Notes under the pieces: generated by a model
The model's input: the letters and a program-made list of their open reading frames with translations, nothing else
The model's database searches: none
Told to the model about the DNA's origin: nothing
Position numbers and translations under genes: made by a program
Assembly: GCA_023140255.1 (NCBI GenBank)
Contig: JAGLLX010000014.1
Location: 1 to 19,115 of the forward strand
From: Minisyncoccota bacterium
GTDB lineage: Bacteria; Patescibacteriota; Minisyncoccia; Phycocordibacterales; UBA12079
DNA: 19,115 nt
Reading direction: 5' to 3'
In this document: piece after piece, positions 921-19,115 of the stretch
Numbering within the stretch: the stretch's first letter is position 1
How the letters are laid out: every line of letters starts with the position of its first letter

Positions 921-950
921 TTGTTCTAACATTCTGCAGAATGTTAGAAT
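921..950 (+). promoter_or_regulatory. Candidate sigma70-type promoter TTGTTC(921-926)-18 nt-TAGAAT(945-950) with an embedded perfect 26-bp palindrome TTCTAACATTCTGCAGAATGTTAGAA (924-949) resembling the palindromes that flank the ArsR gene
   Basis: The -35 and -10 hexamers and the spacer were read directly. The palindrome 924-936 / 937-949 is perfect. Its half-site TTCTAACATTCTG matches TTCTATCATTCTA (18768-18780, 19102-19114) at 11 of 13 positions. Confidence 0.35.
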
Positions 951-961
951 AGTTATGTTTT

Positions 962-1007
962 AAGCCATGCTAAATGGCTCATTAAAATGAGCCGTTTAGC
1001 ATGGCTT
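962..1007 (+). repeat. 46-nt palindromic hairpin element (21-bp stem, loop TAAA, one T:G position that is a G-U wobble only in + strand RNA); REP-like repeat with a second related copy at 11722-11768
   Basis: AAGCCATGCTAAATGGCTCAT-TAAA-ATGAGCCGTTTAGCATGGCTT. Only 975/994 is a non-Watson-Crick pair. The 20-mer AAGCCATGCTAAATGGCTCA recurs at 11722-11741 with one mismatch. Confidence 0.5.
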
Positions 1008-1026
1008 TAGATATGGCTCAAATGAT

Positions 1027-1059
1027 TAAACGGCTACGTTCGTAGCCGTTTAGTTTTTT
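1027..1059 (+). terminator. Rho-independent terminator-like hairpin (12-bp stem AAACGGCTACG..CGTAGCCGTTT) followed by TTTTTT; shares the 10-mer AGCCGTTTAG with the preceding hairpin
   Basis: Stem 1027-1038 / 1041-1052 and T-run 1054-1059 read directly. On the minus strand the hairpin lacks a clean U-run. Confidence 0.5.
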
Positions 1060-1160
1060 AAATTTAAGTTCCACTATTCTTTAATACTTGATACTAAAAA
1101 TCAAAATAATCTAAATTTTTCAAAAAGAGGTCGAAAAATTTGATTATTTTTATTTTTTAG

Positions 1161-3464
1161 TTATTTAGCAACTTTAACCGCTTCAGCAAATTGTACTGAT
1201 AATAATTTAGAAATTCCATCTGATCCCATAGTAACTCCATAAAGAATATTAGCTCGAGACATTGTCTCTCTATTATGAGTAATTAAAATCAACTGAGAAT
1301 GAGAAGATAATTTTTCTATCATATCTCCATATTTTTTAGAATTAGCTTCATCAAGAGCTGCATCTGTTTCATCTAAAATAATGAAAGGTGGAGGTGACAC
1401 TTGTGACATAGCAAATAACAACGCAATTGAAGTTAGAGACCTTTCCCCTCCGGATAACATCTGTAAACCTTTTGTTTTTTTATTAGGCAAAATTACATCA
1501 ACCTCAACCCCTAATTCATCACTTTTAGATTCTTCATTTTCAACTTCATTTACTAATTCTTCATCGCTCACATTAAAATCATCTTTTTTTATTTTAAAAA
1601 TTTTTTCCCTTACTAAACTTAAGTTAGCCTTTCCACCCCCAAACATTAAAATAAAGAATTCTTTAAATTGAGAATTTATTTTTTCTAAACCATTCCGAAA
1701 TTCAATCTCTAATTTTTCTTTCAATTCATTAATTAATTTCAACAAAGACTGAGCAGTCTTTTCTAAATCTTCAATTTCTTTGTTCAAAAATTCATCTCTT
1801 TTTGAAGCTTCTTCATATTCTTTAACCACGTCCTCGCCTGAAAGTCCTCCACTATCCTCAATTAAAACCTTTATCCTTTCTATTTTCTTTAATCTATCAA
1901 CCTGATTTTGTCTATCTTCATTTATAATTTTTTCTTCTTCCAGTTCTAAATCTTTAAACTGAACAGCATCTCGCCCAGCTATAATATAAGATTCATTTAA
2001 TTCCTTCTTATAATTTTCATCAGCGAAGGAGGCTCTTTCTTCTATATTTCGTAAAGAGTTTAACATAGCGTTATGTTCTGTTTGCTGAGCCACAATTTCC
2101 AAAACAGCCAATTCTGCATCTTTATTTAAATCTTTATCTTTTTCTATCACTGTTTTTAAAGAATTATATTTTTCTAAAATAATATTTTCCTTTTCTGCTA
2201 ATTCTTTGATTTGTTTTTCTATTTCTTTTTTTTCTATTTTCTGTTCTTCAATTTTTTTAGTTGATTCATCTTCTACCTTTTTTAATAATTCAACAGGCTT
2301 ATCCTCTAATGAAGAAGATCGAGCTATTAAGTATCTTGATATAAATTGAGAAAAAGAATCTTTTATTTTAGCTAAGGCTTCCCTAATTTGACTAATATCT
2401 TCTAAATTATGAATTAATTTAATCTGTGAACTTATATCTAATTCTAATTCCTTTATTTCCTCTAAATCAACTTCTATTACCTCATTAGAGTTATCCCTCT
2501 TAATTTCTTCAACAAAGGTATTTTCTAAAGCAGAAATTATCCCTTCTACTCTCCCTAGTTTAAAAGTAGTCTGATCTTTTTCTTTTCTCAATTCATTTAA
2601 TTGAAATTTTAAATCGTTTAATTCAGTAGGCCTGTTATCTTCTTTTTGGGCATTTTCTAAAACATTTTTTGCTTCCTGAGCTTTAAGTTCTAATTCAGCT
2701 AATTTTTCTATTAATGGTTTTTTCTCTTTAATATTTTTTTCCTGCCAATAATCTATATAGGTTTTTTCTCTTTTAAAATATTCTCTATATAAAACACCTA
2801 AATCCTTTCTCATTTCTAAAGTCTTTTCAATTTTATTAATCTGCCTTTTTAAAAATTTTAAATGAGGAGCATTTTCTTTTCTTAAAGACTGAACTTCTTC
2901 TATATTTTTTTGAACTTTTTCAAGTTTTTTTTCACTAACAATTCTCTTATATTGATAAATCTTTAATCCCAGAGCCTCTTCTACCATAACTCTCCTTTCT
3001 TTTGAATTAACATTTAAAATCTTATCAGCCTCTCCTTGAGAAATCATATGATGTCCCGAAGACCCAATATTTGCTTTTGCTAATAATTCTGAAATATCTT
3101 TTAAGCGTACAACAGATTTATTTAAAAAATACTGATTCGTTCCATCTCTGTGGACATGTCTTTCTACAATTACTTCATCAAAATCAATATCTAAAAATCG
3201 CTTTGTATTATCAAAAACTATTTTTACGCTAGATCTATTCCCTCTAGGAACTGTTTGAGAACCATTAAAAATTAAGTCTTCCCCTCTTTTCCCTCTCATT
3301 GATTTAATTGACTGTTCTCCCAAAACAAAACGAAAAGCTTCTGCCACATTTGATTTTCCTGAACCATTTGGACCAACAATAGCAGACACACTAGAGTTAA
3401 ATTCTAAATTAGCTTTTTTACCAAAAGACTTAAAGCCACTTATTTCTAACGATTTTAAATACAT
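1161..3464 (-). CDS. smc: SMC-family chromosome-condensation ATPase, compact form (767 aa) with no recognisable hinge domain
   Basis: N-terminus MYLKSLEISGFKSFGKKANLEFNSSVSAIVGPNGSGKSNVAEAFRFVLGEQS carries the Walker A motif. The SMC-specific motif ISQGEADKILNVNSKERRVMVEEALG is present. A long charged coiled-coil middle follows. The C-terminal head has LSGGERSLTSIALLFA (ABC signature) and FIILDETDAALD (Walker B). No glycine-rich hinge segment was seen in the middle. Confidence 0.8.
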   Translation of the reverse strand: MYLKSLEISGFKSFGKKANLEFNSSVSAIVGPNGSGKSNVAEAFRFVLGEQSIKSMRGKRGEDLIFNGSQTVPRGNRSSVKIVFDNTKRFLDIDFDEVIVERHVHRDGTNQYFLNKSVVRLKDISELLAKANIGSSGHHMISQGEADKILNVNSKERRVMVEEALGLKIYQYKRIVSEKKLEKVQKNIEEVQSLRKENAPHLKFLKRQINKIEKTLEMRKDLGVLYREYFKREKTYIDYWQEKNIKEKKPLIEKLAELELKAQEAKNVLENAQKEDNRPTELNDLKFQLNELRKEKDQTTFKLGRVEGIISALENTFVEEIKRDNSNEVIEVDLEEIKELELDISSQIKLIHNLEDISQIREALAKIKDSFSQFISRYLIARSSSLEDKPVELLKKVEDESTKKIEEQKIEKKEIEKQIKELAEKENIILEKYNSLKTVIEKDKDLNKDAELAVLEIVAQQTEHNAMLNSLRNIEERASFADENYKKELNESYIIAGRDAVQFKDLELEEEKIINEDRQNQVDRLKKIERIKVLIEDSGGLSGEDVVKEYEEASKRDEFLNKEIEDLEKTAQSLLKLINELKEKLEIEFRNGLEKINSQFKEFFILMFGGGKANLSLVREKIFKIKKDDFNVSDEELVNEVENEESKSDELGVEVDVILPNKKTKGLQMLSGGERSLTSIALLFAMSQVSPPPFIILDETDAALDEANSKKYGDMIEKLSSHSQLILITHNRETMSRANILYGVTMGSDGISKLLSVQFAEAVKVAK

Positions 3465-3472
3465 TGAGTATT

Positions 3473-3481
3473 ATTATATCA
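3473..3481 (-). promoter_or_regulatory. Extended -10 element TGATATAAT (minus strand) ending 8 nt upstream of the smc ATG; implies a leaderless or near-leaderless smc mRNA
   Basis: + strand ATTATATCA at 3473-3481 is the reverse complement of TGATATAAT. No Shine-Dalgarno sequence lies between it and the ATG at 3464. No good -35 was found. Confidence 0.3.
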
Positions 3482-3535
3482 CTTTAATAACTTTATAGTA
3501 CAAGTCTAAATGTGGAATACTTAATTTTCAATCTA

Positions 3536-3565
3536 TTGACTAATACAATTAAACTATTGTATAAT
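3536..3565 (+). promoter_or_regulatory. Strong sigma70-type promoter TTGACT(3536-3541)-18 nt-TATAAT(3560-3565), with TG immediately upstream of the -10
   Basis: Read directly. It is divergent from smc and drives the micro-ORF at 3689. Confidence 0.55.
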
Positions 3566-3688
3566 AGCAACAAGAGTTCTTTAAATAAATAAGACATTTT
3601 TATCCACAACCCTTGCTGGTTTTATCATATCATTGTCCTATAATTATAGTGGCTGTATCAAAACCTGTAAATTTAAAAGGAGGGTAAA

Positions 3689-3829
3689 ATGAAAAAGTAT
3701 CTACAACATCATTTAAATGCTTTGAACTTTTACGCCTTCTTAAGAAAGTGTAAAGTTCGCAAAGTAGCAGCAAGGAAACTTGTTGCTTGGTGGGGAGACA
3801 GCTCATTTTACAAAACCTTTCTATACTAG
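3689..3829 (+). CDS. Small ORF, 46 aa (MKKYLQHHLNALNFYAFLRKCKVRKVAARKLVAWWGDSSFYKTFLY), basic hypothetical protein; bracketed by its own promoter, a perfect Shine-Dalgarno sequence and a terminator
   Basis: AAGGAGG at 3677-3683, 5 nt before the ATG at 3689. Codons were read through to TAG at 3827-3829. A terminator at 3847-3880 lies 18 nt downstream. The ORF is below the length cutoff of the supplied track. Confidence 0.4.
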   Translation: MKKYLQHHLNALNFYAFLRKCKVRKVAARKLVAWWGDSSFYKTFLY

Positions 3830-3846
3830 GTAAATTAAGTTTACAT

Positions 3847-3880
3847 CGCCCAGAAAACCGTCTCTGTCTGGGCGGTTTTT
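3847..3880 (+). terminator. Rho-independent terminator: GC-rich 8-bp stem CGCCCAGA/TCTGGGCG followed by GTTTTT
   Basis: Stem 3847-3854 / 3867-3874 and T-run 3875-3880 read directly. Confidence 0.6.
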
Positions 3881-3942
3881 ATCTTATTAACATCTAAAAA
3901 CTTGCATATATTTTATTTATATTGTATTACTGTTCCAATGCT

Positions 3943-4092
3943 TCCTGTTAGAAATTTGGAGAAAATAAATTATTTTTTCAAAAATACTAAATACGGGAAC
4001 AAAAAATTATCAGTTTAATTTAAAGATGTTTATTAAAAGTAATATGGGACTTGTCCCGTTAGAGATACTTTTAATACAGTGTCTCTAACAGA
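3943..4092 (+). promoter_or_regulatory. Upstream module of topA, homologous to the tyrS upstream module (16635-16748). Distal motif TCCTGTTAGAAATTTGG (3943-3959), an AT-rich conserved block CAGTTTAATTTAAAGAT..TTATTAAAAGTAA, then GGGACTTGTCCCGTTAGAGATAC and an imperfect inverted repeat whose 3' arm (4079-4092) ends at the topA ATG
   Basis: 4046-4078 (GGGACTTGTCCCGTTAGAGATACTTTTAATA) is identical to the minus-strand sequence upstream of tyrS. Arm CCCGTTAGAGATAC (4055-4068) pairs with GTGTCTCTAACAGA (4079-4092) over 11-12 positions, including one G-U wobble. Confidence 0.5.
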
Positions 4093-6321
4093 ATGAAAAA
4101 ATTATTAATTGTTGAGTCACCAGCAAAATCAAAAACTATATCAAAATATTTAGGAAGCGACTATGTCGTGGAATCTTCTGTTGGACATATTAGAGATATT
4201 CCTAAATCAAACTCTAAAAAAGCAAACGCTGTTGATATTGAAAATAATTTTAAGCCTAATTACGAAGTAATTAAAGGTAAGGAAAAAATAATAACAACTC
4301 TAAAAAGAGAAGCTAAGAAAGCTGACGAAGTTTTGCTCGCAATGGACCCAGACCGTGAAGGAGAAGCTATCGCTTGGCATATTGCTGAAGTTTTGAAATT
4401 ACCTAATGCACAAAGAGTAGTCTTTAATGAAATTACAGAAGAAGCTGTTCAAAAGGCTATTTTACACCCACGAGATATTGACCAAGATTTAAGAAAAGCA
4501 CAAGAAGCTCGTCGTGTTTTAGACAGACTTTTTGGTTATGGATTAAGTGGATTAATTTGGAAAAAATTACGTTACGGTTTATCAGCTGGAAGAGTTCAGT
4601 CCCCTGCTTTACGAATCTTAATGGAACGAGAAAGATTAATTAGAGCTTTTGAACCTGAAGACTACTGGACAATTACAGCCGAAGTTAAAGATCAAACAGG
4701 AAATATGTTTTCTTTAATTTGTTCTGAAGAACCTAGAGATGAAAAGAAAGTAGCTAAAATCACAAAAATTGCTGAGCAAGAAACTTGGAAAATTTTAGAA
4801 ATCAAAGAAACTAACACAAAGAGATCTCCTCGAGCTCCTTTTATAACATCAACATTACAACAAACAGCTAGCTCTAGATTAGGATACTCCCCTAGCCAAA
4901 CAATGATGCATGCACAAAGGCTTTATGAAGCTGGTTATATTACTTATATGAGAACTGATAGTATTACTTTAAGTGCTAATGCTCAAAAGCAAGCTCAAGA
5001 ACTAATTACAAAAGATTACGGAAAAAAATATTTAGAACCAAGAGTGTTTAAATCAAAATCAAAAAATGCTCAAGAAGCCCATGAAGCAATTCGTCCTTCT
5101 AATTTATCTACAGCTAATGCAGGAAAAACAGAAGAACAACAAAAACTATACTCTTTAATTAGAAATAGAACTTTAGCTTCTCAAATGAGTGATGCTAAAT
5201 TATTAAAAACTAAAATAATTGCGTCTGTTGGGAAAAGAGGAAAAGAAGACATAGATTTTCCTTATTTTGAAATTAATGGATCAAGATTATTATTTGATGG
5301 TTGGTTAAAAATTGACCCTGCTGCACGAGGAGAAGATGTTGAATTACCAGAACTTCAAACTGAAGATATCTTGAGTTTACTTAAAATATCAACTGAGGCT
5401 AAACAAACAACTCCTCCAAATAGATATTCTGAAGCTTCTTTAATTAAAGAGTTAGAAAAAAGAGGTTTAGGTCGTCCAAGCACCTATGCTACAATTACCC
5501 GTACTCTTTATGACAGAGGTTATGTAGAAAAAATAAATAAAGCCTTACATCCAACAGACACAGGTGATGCTGTAAGCTCATTTCTAGAAAATCACTTTGA
5601 AAATTATATTAGTGATGATTTTACTGCCGAAATGGAAAATGAATTAGATGAAGTAGCAGAGGGAAAAGGAACTTATGAAAAAGTTTTAACTGATTTTTAC
5701 ACACCTTTTGTTAAAGAAATTAAAAACAAAGAAGGAATTGAAAAAATATCTAATCTGGGTCCTGCTGAAGATAAATACAAATGTCCAAAATGTGGAGCAG
5801 GAATGGTTTATAAACTAGGAAAATCTGGTAAATTTATTTCTTGTGAAAAATTCCCTGACTGTGAAGGTGCATTAACTCTTGAAGGTAAAGAAATTGAAGG
5901 TCCAAAAGAAACTGGGGAAAAATGTCCTGATTGTAAAGACGGTAAATTAGTAATTCGTGAAGGGAAATTTGGAAAATTTGTTTCTTGTTCTAATTATCCT
6001 AAATGCAAATTTATTAAAGAAGATGAGGGAGAGAAAAAAAAGAAAATGACAGGAGTAAAATGTCCTGATTGTGAAGATGGAGAAATGATGGAAAGACGAG
6101 GTCGTTTTGGAATTTTTTATTCTTGTTCAAATTATCCAAAATGTAAAAATGCAATTAAAGCAAAACCCACTGGTAAAATTTGTGATTACCCGAGTGATGC
6201 AAAAGCAGGACAACCTTGTGGAGCTTTAATGATGGAAGGAACTAAGACTATTCCAGAAAGATGCTCTAATAAATCTTGTCCTAACCATAACCCACATAAA
6301 TTAAATAAATTAAAGGAATAA
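4093..6321 (+). CDS. topA: DNA topoisomerase I (type IA) with four C-terminal C4 zinc-ribbon motifs
   Basis: The N-terminus MKKLLIVESPAKSKTISKYLG matches the E. coli TopA N-terminus and the Toprim DPDREGEAIAWH motif is present. The C-terminus has repeated CPxCx..C..C ribbons: CPKCG..SCEKFPDC, CPDCKDG..SCSNYPKC, CPDCEDG..SCSNYPKC and a fourth C4 cluster. Confidence 0.95.
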   Translation: MKKLLIVESPAKSKTISKYLGSDYVVESSVGHIRDIPKSNSKKANAVDIENNFKPNYEVIKGKEKIITTLKREAKKADEVLLAMDPDREGEAIAWHIAEVLKLPNAQRVVFNEITEEAVQKAILHPRDIDQDLRKAQEARRVLDRLFGYGLSGLIWKKLRYGLSAGRVQSPALRILMERERLIRAFEPEDYWTITAEVKDQTGNMFSLICSEEPRDEKKVAKITKIAEQETWKILEIKETNTKRSPRAPFITSTLQQTASSRLGYSPSQTMMHAQRLYEAGYITYMRTDSITLSANAQKQAQELITKDYGKKYLEPRVFKSKSKNAQEAHEAIRPSNLSTANAGKTEEQQKLYSLIRNRTLASQMSDAKLLKTKIIASVGKRGKEDIDFPYFEINGSRLLFDGWLKIDPAARGEDVELPELQTEDILSLLKISTEAKQTTPPNRYSEASLIKELEKRGLGRPSTYATITRTLYDRGYVEKINKALHPTDTGDAVSSFLENHFENYISDDFTAEMENELDEVAEGKGTYEKVLTDFYTPFVKEIKNKEGIEKISNLGPAEDKYKCPKCGAGMVYKLGKSGKFISCEKFPDCEGALTLEGKEIEGPKETGEKCPDCKDGKLVIREGKFGKFVSCSNYPKCKFIKEDEGEKKKKMTGVKCPDCEDGEMMERRGRFGIFYSCSNYPKCKNAIKAKPTGKICDYPSDAKAGQPCGALMMEGTKTIPERCSNKSCPNHNPHKLNKLKE

Positions 6322-16944: not shown

Positions 16945-18078
16945 ATGAAAATTTTGAATTTGGTGTTATTGGTGTTGGTAATTTTAATTACCATGGGGAT
17001 AGTTATTTTTGTGAAAAAGAGACAGTTCTTGAAAAAACAAAAAACTACGGACAAAAGCGAAGATAATGATAAAAAAAAGAAGAATATTTTTGTCAGCCAT
17101 AAGGAAGGGTTGAAACAGATTTTATCTTTCGTGACAATGGCAGTTTTTGCTACTAATATCGGTCACATCTTAGGACACGAAGTTAAAGTATGGACAATTT
17201 CAAAAGGGGTCGAAGAAGTTTATGCCCAGGTAAACTATTGGGTAGCTTTATCAGGTATTTGGATAATTTCTTTCTTATGGACAAGAGATATTAAACCTTT
17301 CCATAAAGGGGTTCCACTTATTCTTGGAAGACCTATAGATTGGTTCACATTACCAAGTGGAAAATTTTGGATTCTTCCAAAACCCTTTATGGATTTTGAA
17401 GAGGTGGATGTTCGACAAAAAGATTTAGACATTGATATTAAAGAAGCTTTATCGAAGGATAATGTAAAAATTGATGTTGATGTTCTTGTTAAAGCTGCAG
17501 TATCTAACCCTTTTCAGTGGCTAAAAACAGAAGAGGCTGACAAAGCTCTAATGACTCTGGTTCGAAGAAATATTCGTGTTTTTGTTAACCAAATTGACTC
17601 AGAAAAAATGCCTGGCCAGAAAATTGAATTTTCCACCAACCTTGAAAAAGGAGTTACTTTCCCTGAGTTAGATGAAGATGGTAACCAAAAATCAGATGCT
17701 GAAGGGGAAAAATTGGTAACAGTAATAGAAAGCGTCTCTACTGTCGCTGCTGATTGGGGATATGGTGAAGGAATCGCTAAGTGTATCATTAATGATATCC
17801 GTTTACCCGAAGAAATGGTGAAAGCAAATATTGCCAAAAAGGTTGAGGAAGCTCAAGTAGAAACAGAAACAACTCAGCAAAATTTATTTCTTACCCAATT
17901 AGGCGGAGGAAATATTGAGAGAGGACGTAAAGATTTTCTCTTAATGGAAGCTGAAGAACGAGCAAAAAATATTCAAGCTGAACGAGGAAAGAGAACGGTA
18001 ATAACAGTAGATGGAAATCTTCCTAGTATAGCTAAAGGTCTTATTGCTGGAGCAGTAATTTCCAAAGGAGGAAAATAA
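16945..18078 (+). CDS. SPFH / band-7 domain membrane protein (stomatin/prohibitin/flotillin/HflK-C superfamily)
   Basis: N-terminal transmembrane helix. SPFH core ILPKPFMDFEEVDVRQKDLDIDIKEALSKDNVKIDVDVLVKAAVSNPFQWL...LVRRNIRVFVNQ matches the band-7 consensus (P.PF.D...VD.R...LD....E.LTKDNV.v.VDAV). C-terminal coiled-coil. AAGGAG Shine-Dalgarno sequence 6 nt before the ATG. Confidence 0.8.
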   Translation: MKILNLVLLVLVILITMGIVIFVKKRQFLKKQKTTDKSEDNDKKKKNIFVSHKEGLKQILSFVTMAVFATNIGHILGHEVKVWTISKGVEEVYAQVNYWVALSGIWIISFLWTRDIKPFHKGVPLILGRPIDWFTLPSGKFWILPKPFMDFEEVDVRQKDLDIDIKEALSKDNVKIDVDVLVKAAVSNPFQWLKTEEADKALMTLVRRNIRVFVNQIDSEKMPGQKIEFSTNLEKGVTFPELDEDGNQKSDAEGEKLVTVIESVSTVAADWGYGEGIAKCIINDIRLPEEMVKANIAKKVEEAQVETETTQQNLFLTQLGGGNIERGRKDFLLMEAEERAKNIQAERGKRTVITVDGNLPSIAKGLIAGAVISKGGK

Positions 18079-18710
18079 TGAGAACAATTACGGTGATGGT
18101 TATTATGGTGGTAATCATTGTCACAATCTGTTGGATGGGAAGCCCTGACAAAAAAGAGTCTTCTCAACAGCAAAAAAAGAAATGGGTTTATTCTTGGAAA
18201 CAAAAAGGAAACGGGGGAAAATGGTTCGAAGGGAAAGCCAGCCAAGTTAGATTTGACAAGGAAGGAAACGTTCTTTCCTTTCATGTTCTTTGGCCAAAAA
18301 CACAAACCAAAGCTGAGTATAGAAGAGACTCAGCCAAAAAAACGGGGACTTACACCCAGAAAAATGAAAAAGGAACTTGGTTCCTTAATAAACTCGCTCG
18401 AACAAATGAGTTCGGGGGTTGGGAAAAAAGTGATAAAGGAGTAGAAGGAGAAATTTTCCTCTTTACTCCTAAAAAACAAGTTTCGTTAGGCCCAGACTGG
18501 AAAGAAATTATCTTACAACCTGGGAAATGGTCAAAAGTTTTTCAAATGAGAAATGGTTCTCGTTGGGAGACTATTCAAGGTAAAGTTTGGGTGAAAGTTG
18601 GAAATAAAAAATCCATCTTAGATACACCAACATCCAAACTTCTGGTGGGGGGTAGTACAATTAGATTTTACCCCGAAACAGATGATGTTGTATTGTTTTT
18701 TAAATATTAG
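18078..18710 (+). CDS. Hypothetical membrane-anchored (possibly lipoprotein) Trp/Lys-rich beta-type protein, translationally coupled to the SPFH gene (TAATG overlap); candidate SPFH partner (NfeD-analogue?)
   Basis: AAGGAGG at 18065-18071, 6 nt before an ATG that overlaps the upstream stop. The N-terminus MRTITVMVIMVVIIVTIC is hydrophobic with a loose lipobox (VTIC). The rest is a soluble 185-aa W/K/G-rich region with no motif I recognise. A strong terminator follows immediately. Confidence 0.65.
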   Translation: MRTITVMVIMVVIIVTICWMGSPDKKESSQQQKKKWVYSWKQKGNGGKWFEGKASQVRFDKEGNVLSFHVLWPKTQTKAEYRRDSAKKTGTYTQKNEKGTWFLNKLARTNEFGGWEKSDKGVEGEIFLFTPKKQVSLGPDWKEIILQPGKWSKVFQMRNGSRWETIQGKVWVKVGNKKSILDTPTSKLLVGGSTIRFYPETDDVVLFFKY

Positions 18711-18713
18711 CAT

Positions 18714-18751
18714 CAGCAGGGAGAGCGAATTTATTCGCCTCCCTGTTTTTT
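18714..18751 (+). terminator. Strong rho-independent terminator of the SPFH operon: GC-rich compound stem CAGGGAG(A)GCGAAT-TT-ATTCGC-CTCCCTG followed by TTTTTT
   Basis: Arms 18717-18730 / 18733-18745. T-run 18746-18751. Confidence 0.7.
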
Positions 18752-18766
18752 AATTGATATTTTAAA

Positions 18767-18794
18767 ATTCTATCATTCTATAGAATGATAGAAT
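18767..18794. promoter_or_regulatory. Perfect 26-bp palindrome TTCTATCATTCTA|TAGAATGATAGAA (28 bp with flanking A/T) just downstream of the ArsR gene stop; candidate ArsR-family operator and/or minus-strand terminator hairpin for the regulator gene
   Basis: 18768-18780 pairs perfectly with 18781-18793. On the minus strand the hairpin is followed by TTTTAAAAT. The same half-site recurs at 19102-19115. Confidence 0.5.
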
Positions 18795-18808
18795 GTGGTA
18801 ATTCATTT

Positions 18809-19093
18809 TTAAAAAGTTTTTATAAAAGATACAAATCTTTTACCATATGGAGAAAGTTTATGAGAAACTGGTTTACCAATATACTGTTTATTTAATAAAC
18901 CTGCTAAAACAAGTTTTTCTGTATGCTGAGCAACAACTTTGTAATCAGTCTTTAGTCCTTCAGCTATATCAAAAAGACTAGAACCTTTATTTTTTTCAAT
19001 AAAAAGCAAAATGTCTATTCTTCTATGATTAGCAGGACCTTTAAAAAATCTTTCTAGTCTTTTTCCTTCTCTTTGGTTTTTAGTTTTCTTCAT
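18809..19093 (-). CDS. ArsR/SmtB-family winged-helix transcriptional regulator (94 aa, no cysteines, so probably not a thiol-metal sensor)
   Basis: FKGPANHRRIDILLFIEKNKGSSLFDIAEGLKTDYKVVAQHTEKLVLAGLL matches the ArsR HTH pattern (DPTRL.IL..L...E..V.DLA..L..SQS.VSHHLK.L..AGL). Zero Cys residues. Confidence 0.8.
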   Translation of the reverse strand: MKKTKNQREGKRLERFFKGPANHRRIDILLFIEKNKGSSLFDIAEGLKTDYKVVAQHTEKLVLAGLLNKQYIGKPVSHKLSPYGKRFVSFIKTF

Positions 19094-19101
19094 ATCTTAT
19101 A

Positions 19102-19115
19102 TTCTATCATTCTAT
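19102..19115. promoter_or_regulatory. Second copy of the palindrome half-site TTCTATCATTCTAT, 9 nt upstream of the ArsR-gene start codon; runs off the window; likely autoregulatory operator overlapping a TAGAAT -10
   Basis: Identical 14-mer to 18768-18781. On the minus strand it reads ATAGAATGATAGAATATAAGAT then ATG, with TAGAAT 7-8 nt before the ATG (leaderless geometry). Confidence 0.45.

Follow-up and report, generated by a model that had tools for sequence, protein, structure and literature searches.

A small winged-helix regulator gene of Patescibacteria enclosed by two copies of its putative operator

The regulator gene and the palindromes on either side of it

We analysed a 19,115-nt stretch of DNA from a Minisyncoccota bacterium (contig JAGLLX010000014.1, assembly GCA_023140255.1; hereafter, the window), close to the right-hand end of which lies a minus-strand open reading frame (ORF) of 94 amino acids. 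This gene (ATG 19093-19091, stop codon 18811-18809) encodes a small winged-helix regulator and is enclosed by two copies of one palindrome. The sequence TTCTATCATTCTATAGAATGATAGAA at 18768-18793 is a perfect 26-bp palindrome located exactly 15 nt beyond the stop codon, and its first 14 nt are repeated at 19102-19115, the last position of the window being one base beyond the centre of this second palindrome. An earlier note on this DNA had described the gene as bracketed by the same 26-bp palindrome; the repeat and its downstream spacing were as described, but the upstream gap to the ATG is 8 nt, not 9. The degenerate 26-mer given in that note has two matches in the window, against 0.00 expected from 200 shuffles, and the second of these is a third site, at 924-949, which the note did not contain. 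The features are collected in Table 1.

The identical regulator protein is encoded on four other contigs, two of which (designated L001 and L004) extend past the end of the window. On both, the upstream copy is complete and lies within a 48-bp perfect palindrome, CATATCTTATATTCTATCATTCTATAGAATGATAGAATATAAGATATG, the final three bases of which are the start codon of the regulator; its other arm is the part located beyond the window end. The earlier note had made its reading depend on the continuation of the upstream copy as a full palindrome past position 19115, and exactly this continuation was found on the two longer contigs. A Logan contig, L003, begins inside the upstream palindrome, and many related contigs start or end within tens of bases of the site (e.g., L008, L014, L052, L072, L012, L043 and L059). 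The boundary of the window is most likely an assembly break at the palindrome, where assemblies of Patescibacteria metagenomes seem to break repeatedly.

The 94-amino-acid protein contains no cysteine. An AlphaFold model computed on the family alignment (mean pLDDT 84.9) has the topology a1-a2-a3-aR-b1-b2-a5, with helices at residues 10-17, 20-34, 40-47, 51-63 and 82-93 and strands at 67-71 and 76-80. The closest structures in a Foldseek search were SqrR, AspA, YgaV, CadC, SmtB and PagR, with E values of 1e-4 to 7e-4 for SqrR, YgaV, CadC, SmtB and PagR; AspA was superimposed on the model with an rmsd of 0.8-1.0 Å over 69-70 columns at 23% identity. AspA was also the best sequence match in the PDB, although not a significant one (E = 0.16), and HlyU was a weak match there. 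The scores against curated sequence models fell short of their cut-offs. No HTH_5 (PF01022) match was found in the window protein at E<=0.01, a threshold at which 46 of the 53 relatives match; its Pfam matches are weak and of the generic winged-helix kind, the best being HTH_24 at 19.0 bits, under the cut-off of 21.9. The best NCBIfam model, NF033788 (an ArsR/SmtB metalloregulator subfamily), was matched at 21.8 bits against a cut-off of 55, and by relatives at 44-50 bits. Assignment to the ArsR family, as made in the earlier note, therefore holds at the level of fold and superfamily but not by the curated cut-offs: the protein is ArsR/SmtB-like by fold and operator type, and not a demonstrated member by curated sequence criteria.

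With regard to a sensor site, no conserved cysteine column was found in the 53-sequence alignment, and the last helix (residues 82-93, PYGKRFVSFIKT) contains no His, Asp or Glu. Therefore, neither of the canonical sensor sites (a3/a3N and a5) is present, and the description of the regulator as Cys-less and without a clear alpha-5 metal site agrees with both the sequence and the alignment. The conserved histidines of the family are His23, His57 and His78.

Table 1. Positions of the features in the window
Feature	Position	Strand	Basis
Regulator gene; 94 aa, Cys-less winged helix, ArsR/SmtB-like	18809..19093	-	ORF, AlphaFold, Foldseek, relatives
Putative downstream operator; 30-nt frame AATTCTATCATTCTATAGAATGATAGAATG with perfect 26-bp core at 18768-18793	18767..18796		Sequence and motif scan
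Putative upstream operator, part within the window (right arm of the 48-bp palindrome, including the start codon); centre 19114.5	19091..19115		L001 9956-10003
Predicted extended -10 element TGATAGAAT, part of the operator half-site and 7 nt from the ATG	19101..19109	-	Sequence; promoter inferred
Third operator-type site TGTTCTAACATTCTGCAGAATGTTAGAATA; perfect 26-bp palindrome at 924-949	923..952		Motif scan
G+C-rich hairpin with T-run; terminator of the convergent gene 18078-18710	18717..18751	+	Sequence read directly

Conservation of the arrangement and of the shared motif

How widely is this arrangement distributed? A protein search yielded 163 members of the regulator family, 85-121 amino acids long (mostly ~88-100) and with a mean column identity of 62%. 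All members with a named source come from Patescibacteria-type candidate phyla, and relatives are present in 315 species-representative genomes. The labelled relatives belong to Uhr-, Sung-, Giovannoni-, Wolfe-, Jorgensen-, Yanofsky-, Kaiser-, Nomura-, Campbell-, Moran- and Doudnabacteria; the record of the window protein is labelled Pacebacteria, and NCBI places the labelled groups in Minisyncoccota and related candidate phyla. The window palindrome is the local version of a more general 30-bp motif, yATTCyNAyATTCT-NN-AGAATrTNrGAATr. When 81 non-redundant species-level loci (657 kb) were scanned with the 30-nt frame CATTCNNNCATTCTNNAGAATGNNNGAATG, allowing up to five mismatches, 199 matches were obtained, against none in shuffled sequence. 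The motif was present both upstream and downstream of the regulator gene in 73 of the 81 lineages, the other eight being mostly truncated contigs. An independent metagenome sample, seeded by the DNA pattern only, contained both copies at 21 of 28 regulator genes. Twenty of the 30 motif positions are at least 88% conserved in upstream, downstream and other sites alike, and approximately four further conserved bases flank the motif on each side. The bracket thus represents an old architecture that has been conserved, rather than a duplication of local origin. Sites of the same genome, including those away from the bracket, agree at 26.7 of the 30 positions (26.5-27.2), compared with 24.0 between lineages; no homogenisation of the two bracket sites was detected, in that the bracket pair is no more alike than a bracket site and an extra site.

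The long arms seen in the window lineage are a different matter. Across the lineages, we found no general selection for palindromy in the arms beyond the motif, the mean perfect extension past the 30-nt frame being 2.5-2.9 nt, the bulk of which is conserved motif. In relative L206, the outer-arm symmetry is lost. Another relative, L210 (73% protein identity), keeps the ATG-containing 48-bp palindrome (3119-3166 in L210, corresponding to 9956-10003 in L001) through paired changes, one of which lies in the outer arms beyond the conserved motif and turns ATCTTATA/TATAAGAT into ATTTTATA/TATAAAAT, that is, C to T paired with G to A.

The motif and the protein vary together. In 93 gene/site sets, we compared residues of the regulator with bases of the half-site. 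Where residue 74, at the wing tip, is arginine, half-site position 9, with which the inner CATTC block opens, is C in 72 lineages and another base in five; where residue 74 is not arginine, the position is not C in 13 lineages and C in three (Fisher p = 1.5e-9). At 75% identity, the lineages without Arg74 are spread over 10 separate protein clusters, and C is the usual base in the Arg-type relatives nearest to them. Within the window clade, Lys74 (the window and L208) occurs with CATTCT and Asn74 (L206) with AATTCT. A second pair involves the recognition helix: with Arg60, the central base is other than G in 47 lineages and G in one, whereas with Ser60 or Lys60 it is G in 39 and not G in six (p = 2e-18). 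Both p-values are inflated by shared ancestry. Such repeated, independent switches would otherwise be hard to explain, and they argue that the protein contacts the co-varying bases. The proposal of the earlier note that the repeat is the operator of the regulator is thus borne out by two lines of evidence, the bracketing of orthologues and the co-variation, and on these comparisons of sequence we consider it very probable that the repeat is the cognate site of the protein.

The upstream copy is situated as an operator at a promoter would be. The sequence TTCTATCATTCT-AT-AGAATGATAGAA is a 12-2-12 inverted repeat that overlaps the predicted -10 element of the regulator's own promoter. On the minus strand, the hexamer TAGAAT at 19101-19106 is preceded by TGA, which makes up an extended -10 element 7 nt from the ATG, and the same in-operator arrangement is found in the relatives L206 and L208. 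The earlier note had taken TAGAAT to be the -10 element of a leaderless transcript, and the family as a whole agrees with this: 57 of 78 lineages have a -10-like hexamer followed, at a distance of 5-9 nt (mode 6-7), by an in-frame start codon, compared with 18 for out-of-frame controls, and a sequence resembling a Shine-Dalgarno element was found in only four of the 78. The TGn extension is present in 31 of the 57 lineages with leaderless geometry. Of the site classes, only the upstream copy has a positioned -10 element, and it has one only on the side facing the regulator gene. The regulator mRNA looks leaderless, with a predicted promoter that the operator overlaps.

The exact placement of this promoter differs among lineages. 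In most of them, the -10 element starts 3, 6 or 15 nt beyond the 30-nt site; in the window clade, it starts inside the site (offset -7). The operator centre lies at about -21.5 in the window and, as estimated from the -10 offsets, at about -32 in typical lineages. The conserved LER motif of the protein is encoded 42 nt from the site in the window, compared with the usual 36-48. Because this distance is ordinary, it seems that in the window clade both the start codon and the -10 function were shifted into a stretch that serves as spacer in other lineages. ArsR-type proteins are nearly always repressors, and for this reason autorepression is the most likely mode of action; that the protein represses its own leaderless promoter is, in our judgement, probable.

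The downstream copy is tied to the coding sequence and not to the neighbouring gene, and its position holds whatever gene comes next. In most lineages, the final codons of the regulator, stop codon included, overlap with it. The copy begins 8 nt before the stop codon ends in 38 lineages, such that ACA TTC TAA (Thr-Phe-stop) forms the first CATTC block. In 15 further lineages, a T-to-C change removes the stop codon (TAA to CAA, CGA or CTA), and the operator is translated as Thr-Phe-(Gln/Arg/Leu)-His-Ser-stop (e.g., L009, L023, L037 and L045); the 'QHS'-type C-terminal extensions in the family alignment exist because the stop codon embedded in the operator was lost. In eight lineages the downstream copy abuts the stop codon, and in the window its offset is +13 in the 30-nt frame. 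Approximately half of the lineages have a co-directional ORF beyond the copy, and the others have nothing or a convergent gene. A positioned -10 element follows the downstream copy, in either direction, in only 5-6% of cases, compared with 32% for the upstream copy, and half-sites form TGnTAnnnT in only 10-37%, the downstream excess being due to the embedded TAA stop codon. The downstream copy is not generally a promoter or an antisense promoter. The centres of the two operators are 334 bp apart in the window and 299-455 bp apart across lineages, with modes at 307-308, 316-319, 327, 334 and 349-350 bp.

Further copies and the genes around them

Copies of the motif are not confined to the bracket. 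In the metagenome sample seeded by the DNA pattern, 119 sites had adequate flanks, of which 38 bracket a regulator gene and 81 do not. This implies approximately six strict copies per genome, about four of them beyond the bracket and beside unrelated genes. The extra copies are concentrated at distances of up to ~3 kb from the regulator gene (0.5-1.1 per 10 kb, compared with 0.1 at 4-5 kb). They are mostly intergenic, are distributed among tandem, convergent and divergent gaps in background proportions, and show no preference for 3′ or 5′ gene ends relative to background. A coherent regulon was sought by clustering 419 ORFs adjacent to sites, but apart from the regulator and two clusters that were antisense artefacts, the groups obtained were small and unrelated (TspO, PIF1 helicase, NYN, DUF559, RhuM/Fic, enolase, fmt, RadC and a small membrane-anchored HTH protein). 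The earlier note had held that many copies at unrelated sites without promoter association would speak against an operator. About two-thirds of the copies do lie away from the regulator gene and have no positioned -10 element, so that this objection applies in part. The operator would therefore serve more than autoregulation.

In the window, the third site (TTCTAACATTCTGCAGAATGTTAGAA at 924-949) lies between a gene for a CBM_4_9 secreted protein and an SMC_N/AAA_23 gene. The region around it, 700-1160, is packed with palindromes, including the perfect 26-bp palindrome CGAATGTTTTTTATAAAAAACATTCG at 827-852, in which the GAATG/CATTC blocks are everted, a 32-bp near-perfect palindrome at 888-919 and a hairpin with 29-nt arms at 955-1014; a hairpin with a T-run follows at 1020-1059 on the plus strand. 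RNA from 953-1064(+) folds at -60.3 kcal/mol (z = -11.9) and has no Rfam match. A small RNA of ~105 nt could start from TGTTAGAAT inside the third site. The densest cluster of sites was observed in L019 (Sungiibacteriota), where the region 1800-5000 contains seven motif copies in 3 kb, approximately one per intergenic gap, among genes for the small membrane-anchored HTH protein, a Cys-rich 330-aa protein, the regulator and TspO. Neighbours of the L019 type recur beside sites in L013, L014, L040 and L028. A scan of viral contigs with the pattern gave one match, which is located in a large ORF and departs from the canonical motif.

The window itself is part of a low-G+C bacterial chromosome (~30% G+C). 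Its genes include those for TyrRS, TrpRS, a class II tRNA synthetase of the Asp/Lys/Asn type, RNase J, topoisomerase I, an MFS transporter and an SPFH protein; Rfam and tRNA scans of the whole window gave no match. The left end of the source contigs coincides with the left end of the window. The SPFH/Band-7 gene (16945-18078) overlaps a gene for a 210-aa protein (18078-18710) by ATGA; the latter protein has no Pfam match and may be an NfeD-like partner. The terminator of this convergent gene ends 16 nt from the downstream operator. In the window lineage, genes for T4SS pilins lie upstream of the regulator and the convergent SPFH operon downstream. In the relatives L206, L208 and L210, the regulator is followed by co-directional housekeeping genes (Cob_adeno_trans, adh_short, SIMPL and secE-nusG-rplK), and rplS is directly upstream of it in two of the three. 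Because the neighbours in the window differ from those in its close relatives, a rearrangement breakpoint must lie at or adjoining the operator.

A proposed autorepression module and its alternatives

How might these features fit together? We propose, with a probability of about 0.55, that the repeat is the operator of the protein encoded between its copies, that operator, leaderless gene and operator form an ancient module of the Patescibacteria, and that the protein is an autorepressor. At the upstream copy, a bound dimer would overlap the promoter and exclude RNA polymerase, so that the gene would repress itself; in the window lineage, the right half-site would supply the extended -10 element. 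The downstream copy would be a second high-affinity operator, most likely auxiliary to the upstream one, and might, by looping or cooperative occupancy, act over ~334 bp, or else form a roadblock closing off the transcription unit. Through the third site at 924-949, and a handful of such sites per genome, a few unrelated neighbouring genes could come under the same protein. The sequence features, their conservation, the geometry of the promoter and the co-variation of protein and DNA are observations, from which we infer the binding itself, repression rather than activation, and the looping or roadblock role.

Several observations weigh against this proposal. Lacking a recognisable sensor site, the protein may not be a signal-responsive repressor at all. 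Neither the downstream copy nor the extra sites have a positioned -10 element in either direction or an orientation bias relative to genes, and the neighbours of the extra sites are functionally unrelated. The helical phasing of the two operators is weak (Rayleigh R = 0.27-0.28 at 10-10.5 bp, p ~0.004, from lineages that are not independent); a 3-bp period scores the same as one of 10-10.5 bp, and the 334 bp of the window is off the main modes. Over the whole range of centre distances, 299-455 bp, no compensation is visible by eye in the spacings of the individual lineages. We therefore regard an auxiliary or roadblock role of the downstream copy as a tentative suggestion, and support for looping specifically is thin.

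A different function for the same protein and sites should be considered, in which the protein would not be a transcription factor in the first place but would nucleate on a handful of palindromes (the two enclosing its gene, a local cluster and a few distant intergenic ones) to organise, insulate or segregate DNA, in the manner of the archaeal centromere-binding protein AspA. The palindromes would then constitute a Patescibacteria-wide architectural system of protein-dependent boundaries (roadblock terminators or insulators) or of anchors for the nucleoid or for segregation. The place of AspA among the closest structures and as the best, non-significant sequence match in the PDB fits this view, as do the clustering of extra sites within ~3 kb of the gene (seven in 3 kb in L019), the missing promoter linkage of the downstream and extra sites, their unrelated neighbours and the absence of a sensor site. 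However, the model is equally similar to structures of ArsR-type repressors, no ParA/ParB-type Pfam families were found among the called neighbours in L001, L002, L206, L208 and L210, the upstream copy is clearly promoter-linked, and about two-thirds of the sites lie away from the regulator gene; we consider such a system unlikely, although worth keeping in mind. The perfect 24-nt arms of the 48-bp palindrome, which are A+T-rich and contain the promoter and the ATG, suggest another possibility: the palindrome might extrude as a cruciform, burying the -10 element and the start codon, and the protein would hold the DNA linear and thereby turn its own gene on. HlyU, an ArsR-type protein, attenuates a repressive cruciform (PMC10325908), and the paired outer-arm change in L210 would be in keeping with such a role. 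Long arms are nevertheless exceptional in the family, given the short mean extension beyond the 30-nt frame, the outer symmetry was lost in L206, and in most lineages the -10 element lies outside the palindrome, all of which make positive autoregulation of this kind improbable.

Three further explanations concern the downstream copy or the bracket as such. The copy could act mainly at the RNA level, as a terminator or a 3′ stabilising hairpin that resembles the operator incidentally, since it lies 15 nt past the stop codon, is followed by TTTT (as are 25% of downstream copies, compared with 11% of upstream ones) and folds better than shuffled sequences (z = -4.4). The hairpin in the window nevertheless has 12 pairs of which two are G-C, a folding energy of -13.3 kcal/mol and the tail UUUUAAAAU, and a consensus terminator scan of L001 9800-10450 gave no terminator-like site, so that the suggestion in the earlier note that the copy doubles as a terminator is not sustained. 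In addition, 20 invariant bases shared with the promoter operator, and co-varying with the protein, would be superfluous in a hairpin, the organism has ordinary G+C-rich terminators such as that at 18717-18751, and we hold an RNA-level role to be quite improbable. Could the downstream copy instead be the operator of the next gene, and the bracket a by-product of a compact genome? In approximately half of the lineages a co-directional ORF begins 2-70 nt past the copy, in some with a -10 element between them; against this, the next gene in the window runs convergently and ends at a terminator of its own, a co-directional ORF within 150 nt is missing in ~20 of 77 lineages, a -10 element at +3 to +9 is found in 6% (32% upstream), and the position of the copy is fixed to the last codons of the regulator. 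Together these facts make a next-gene operator very improbable. The identical 28-bp sequences that precisely bracket the gene, the differing neighbourhoods of distant lineages, and of the window and its close relatives, and the L019 region with a site between nearly every gene recall a mobile or duplicated cassette, which the earlier note had raised, in which the repeats would be the ends used in recombination or transposition, like REP/RAYT elements or integron attC sites. However, arrangement and motif have been conserved across candidate phyla together with the protein, and relatives at 73-82% identity (L206, L208 and L210) share one syntenic location, in the order pseudouridine synthase, rplS (in two of the three), regulator and, further downstream, secE-nusG-rplK. 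No transposase, integrase or recombinase is among the genes listed nearby, no homologue of the protein was found in 2.9 million viral contigs, there are only ~6 strict copies per genome, and the bracket sites are no more alike than a bracket site and an extra one. A cassette is accordingly the least credible of these explanations.

The proposed autorepression module can be compared with several known systems. Looping repressors, such as lambda CI at OR/OL and the repressors acting at lac O1/O2 and gal OE/OI, likewise use two operator copies a few hundred bp apart, one on the promoter and the other, promoter-less, inside or after the transcribed region; here, by contrast, the 285-bp gene of the repressor itself lies between the operators, the 94-aa protein has no evident oligomerisation domain, and the evidence for phasing is weak. 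AspA of the Sulfolobus plasmid pNOB8 (PDB 4rs8 and 5k5q) is also a winged-helix protein of ~90 amino acids (rmsd ~0.9 Å) that binds a palindrome upstream of its own gene, but the present system has no ParB/ParA partner genes and is chromosomal and bacterial. REP elements flank the genes of RAYT transposases on both sides, are recognised by these transposases and occur in further intergenic copies elsewhere, an arrangement like the present one; REPs are species-specific, however, and the system described here differs in having no catalytic domain, a low copy number and conservation over phylum-level distances.

The closest likeness is to the SmtB/ArsR autorepressors (SmtB, CzrA, AzuR, SqrR and PagR), with which the regulator shares the small winged-helix fold of the dimeric type (a1-a2-a3-aR-b1-b2-a5) and the best-scoring model, NF033788. 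The 12-2-12 inverted repeat is the operator type reported for SmtB/ArsR repressors, where it overlaps the promoter of the regulated gene or of the regulator's own gene (PMC8790569). The present family differs from them in its sub-cut-off scores, in the lack of cysteine and of an a3N/a5 metal or persulfide site, and in having no transporter or detoxification partner gene. Its half-site consists of tandem CATTC blocks rather than TGAA/TTCA, a second operator is fixed at the regulator's own stop codon, and the module is conserved across the radiation instead of being tied to a resistance operon. HlyU of Vibrio likewise combines an ArsR-like winged helix with a perfect palindrome overlapping a promoter (PMC10325908), but it derepresses another gene, and long perfect arms are exceptional in the regulator family studied here. 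No description of the motif or of the family was found in open-access papers and bioRxiv preprints searched by taxon, regulator type and motif strings. An ArsR-like regulator with a 12-2-12 operator is known in kind (PMC8790569); what appear to be new are the pair of operators around the gene of the regulator itself, the incorporation of an operator into the stop codon, the conservation over the whole radiation and the explicit co-variation of residues and bases.

The Patescibacteria, or candidate phyla radiation (CPR), account for a large share of bacterial diversity, and they have tiny genomes with few regulators, in which the control of transcription is almost unstudied. In this study, one small protein and its probable DNA site were found to be conserved together over several candidate phyla, with identifiable residues that co-vary with bases of the site, and a promoter type, leaderless with an extended -10 element, is predicted. 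One operator on the promoter and another in the stop codon of the same gene would be an unusual architecture. The palindrome would also explain the frequent assembly breaks in these organisms, including that at the end of the window. If the architectural alternative were true, the sites would represent a chromatin or boundary element specific to this lineage, among bacteria that have very few regulators. The autorepression module that we propose should provide a directly testable entry point to the control of transcription in Patescibacteria.

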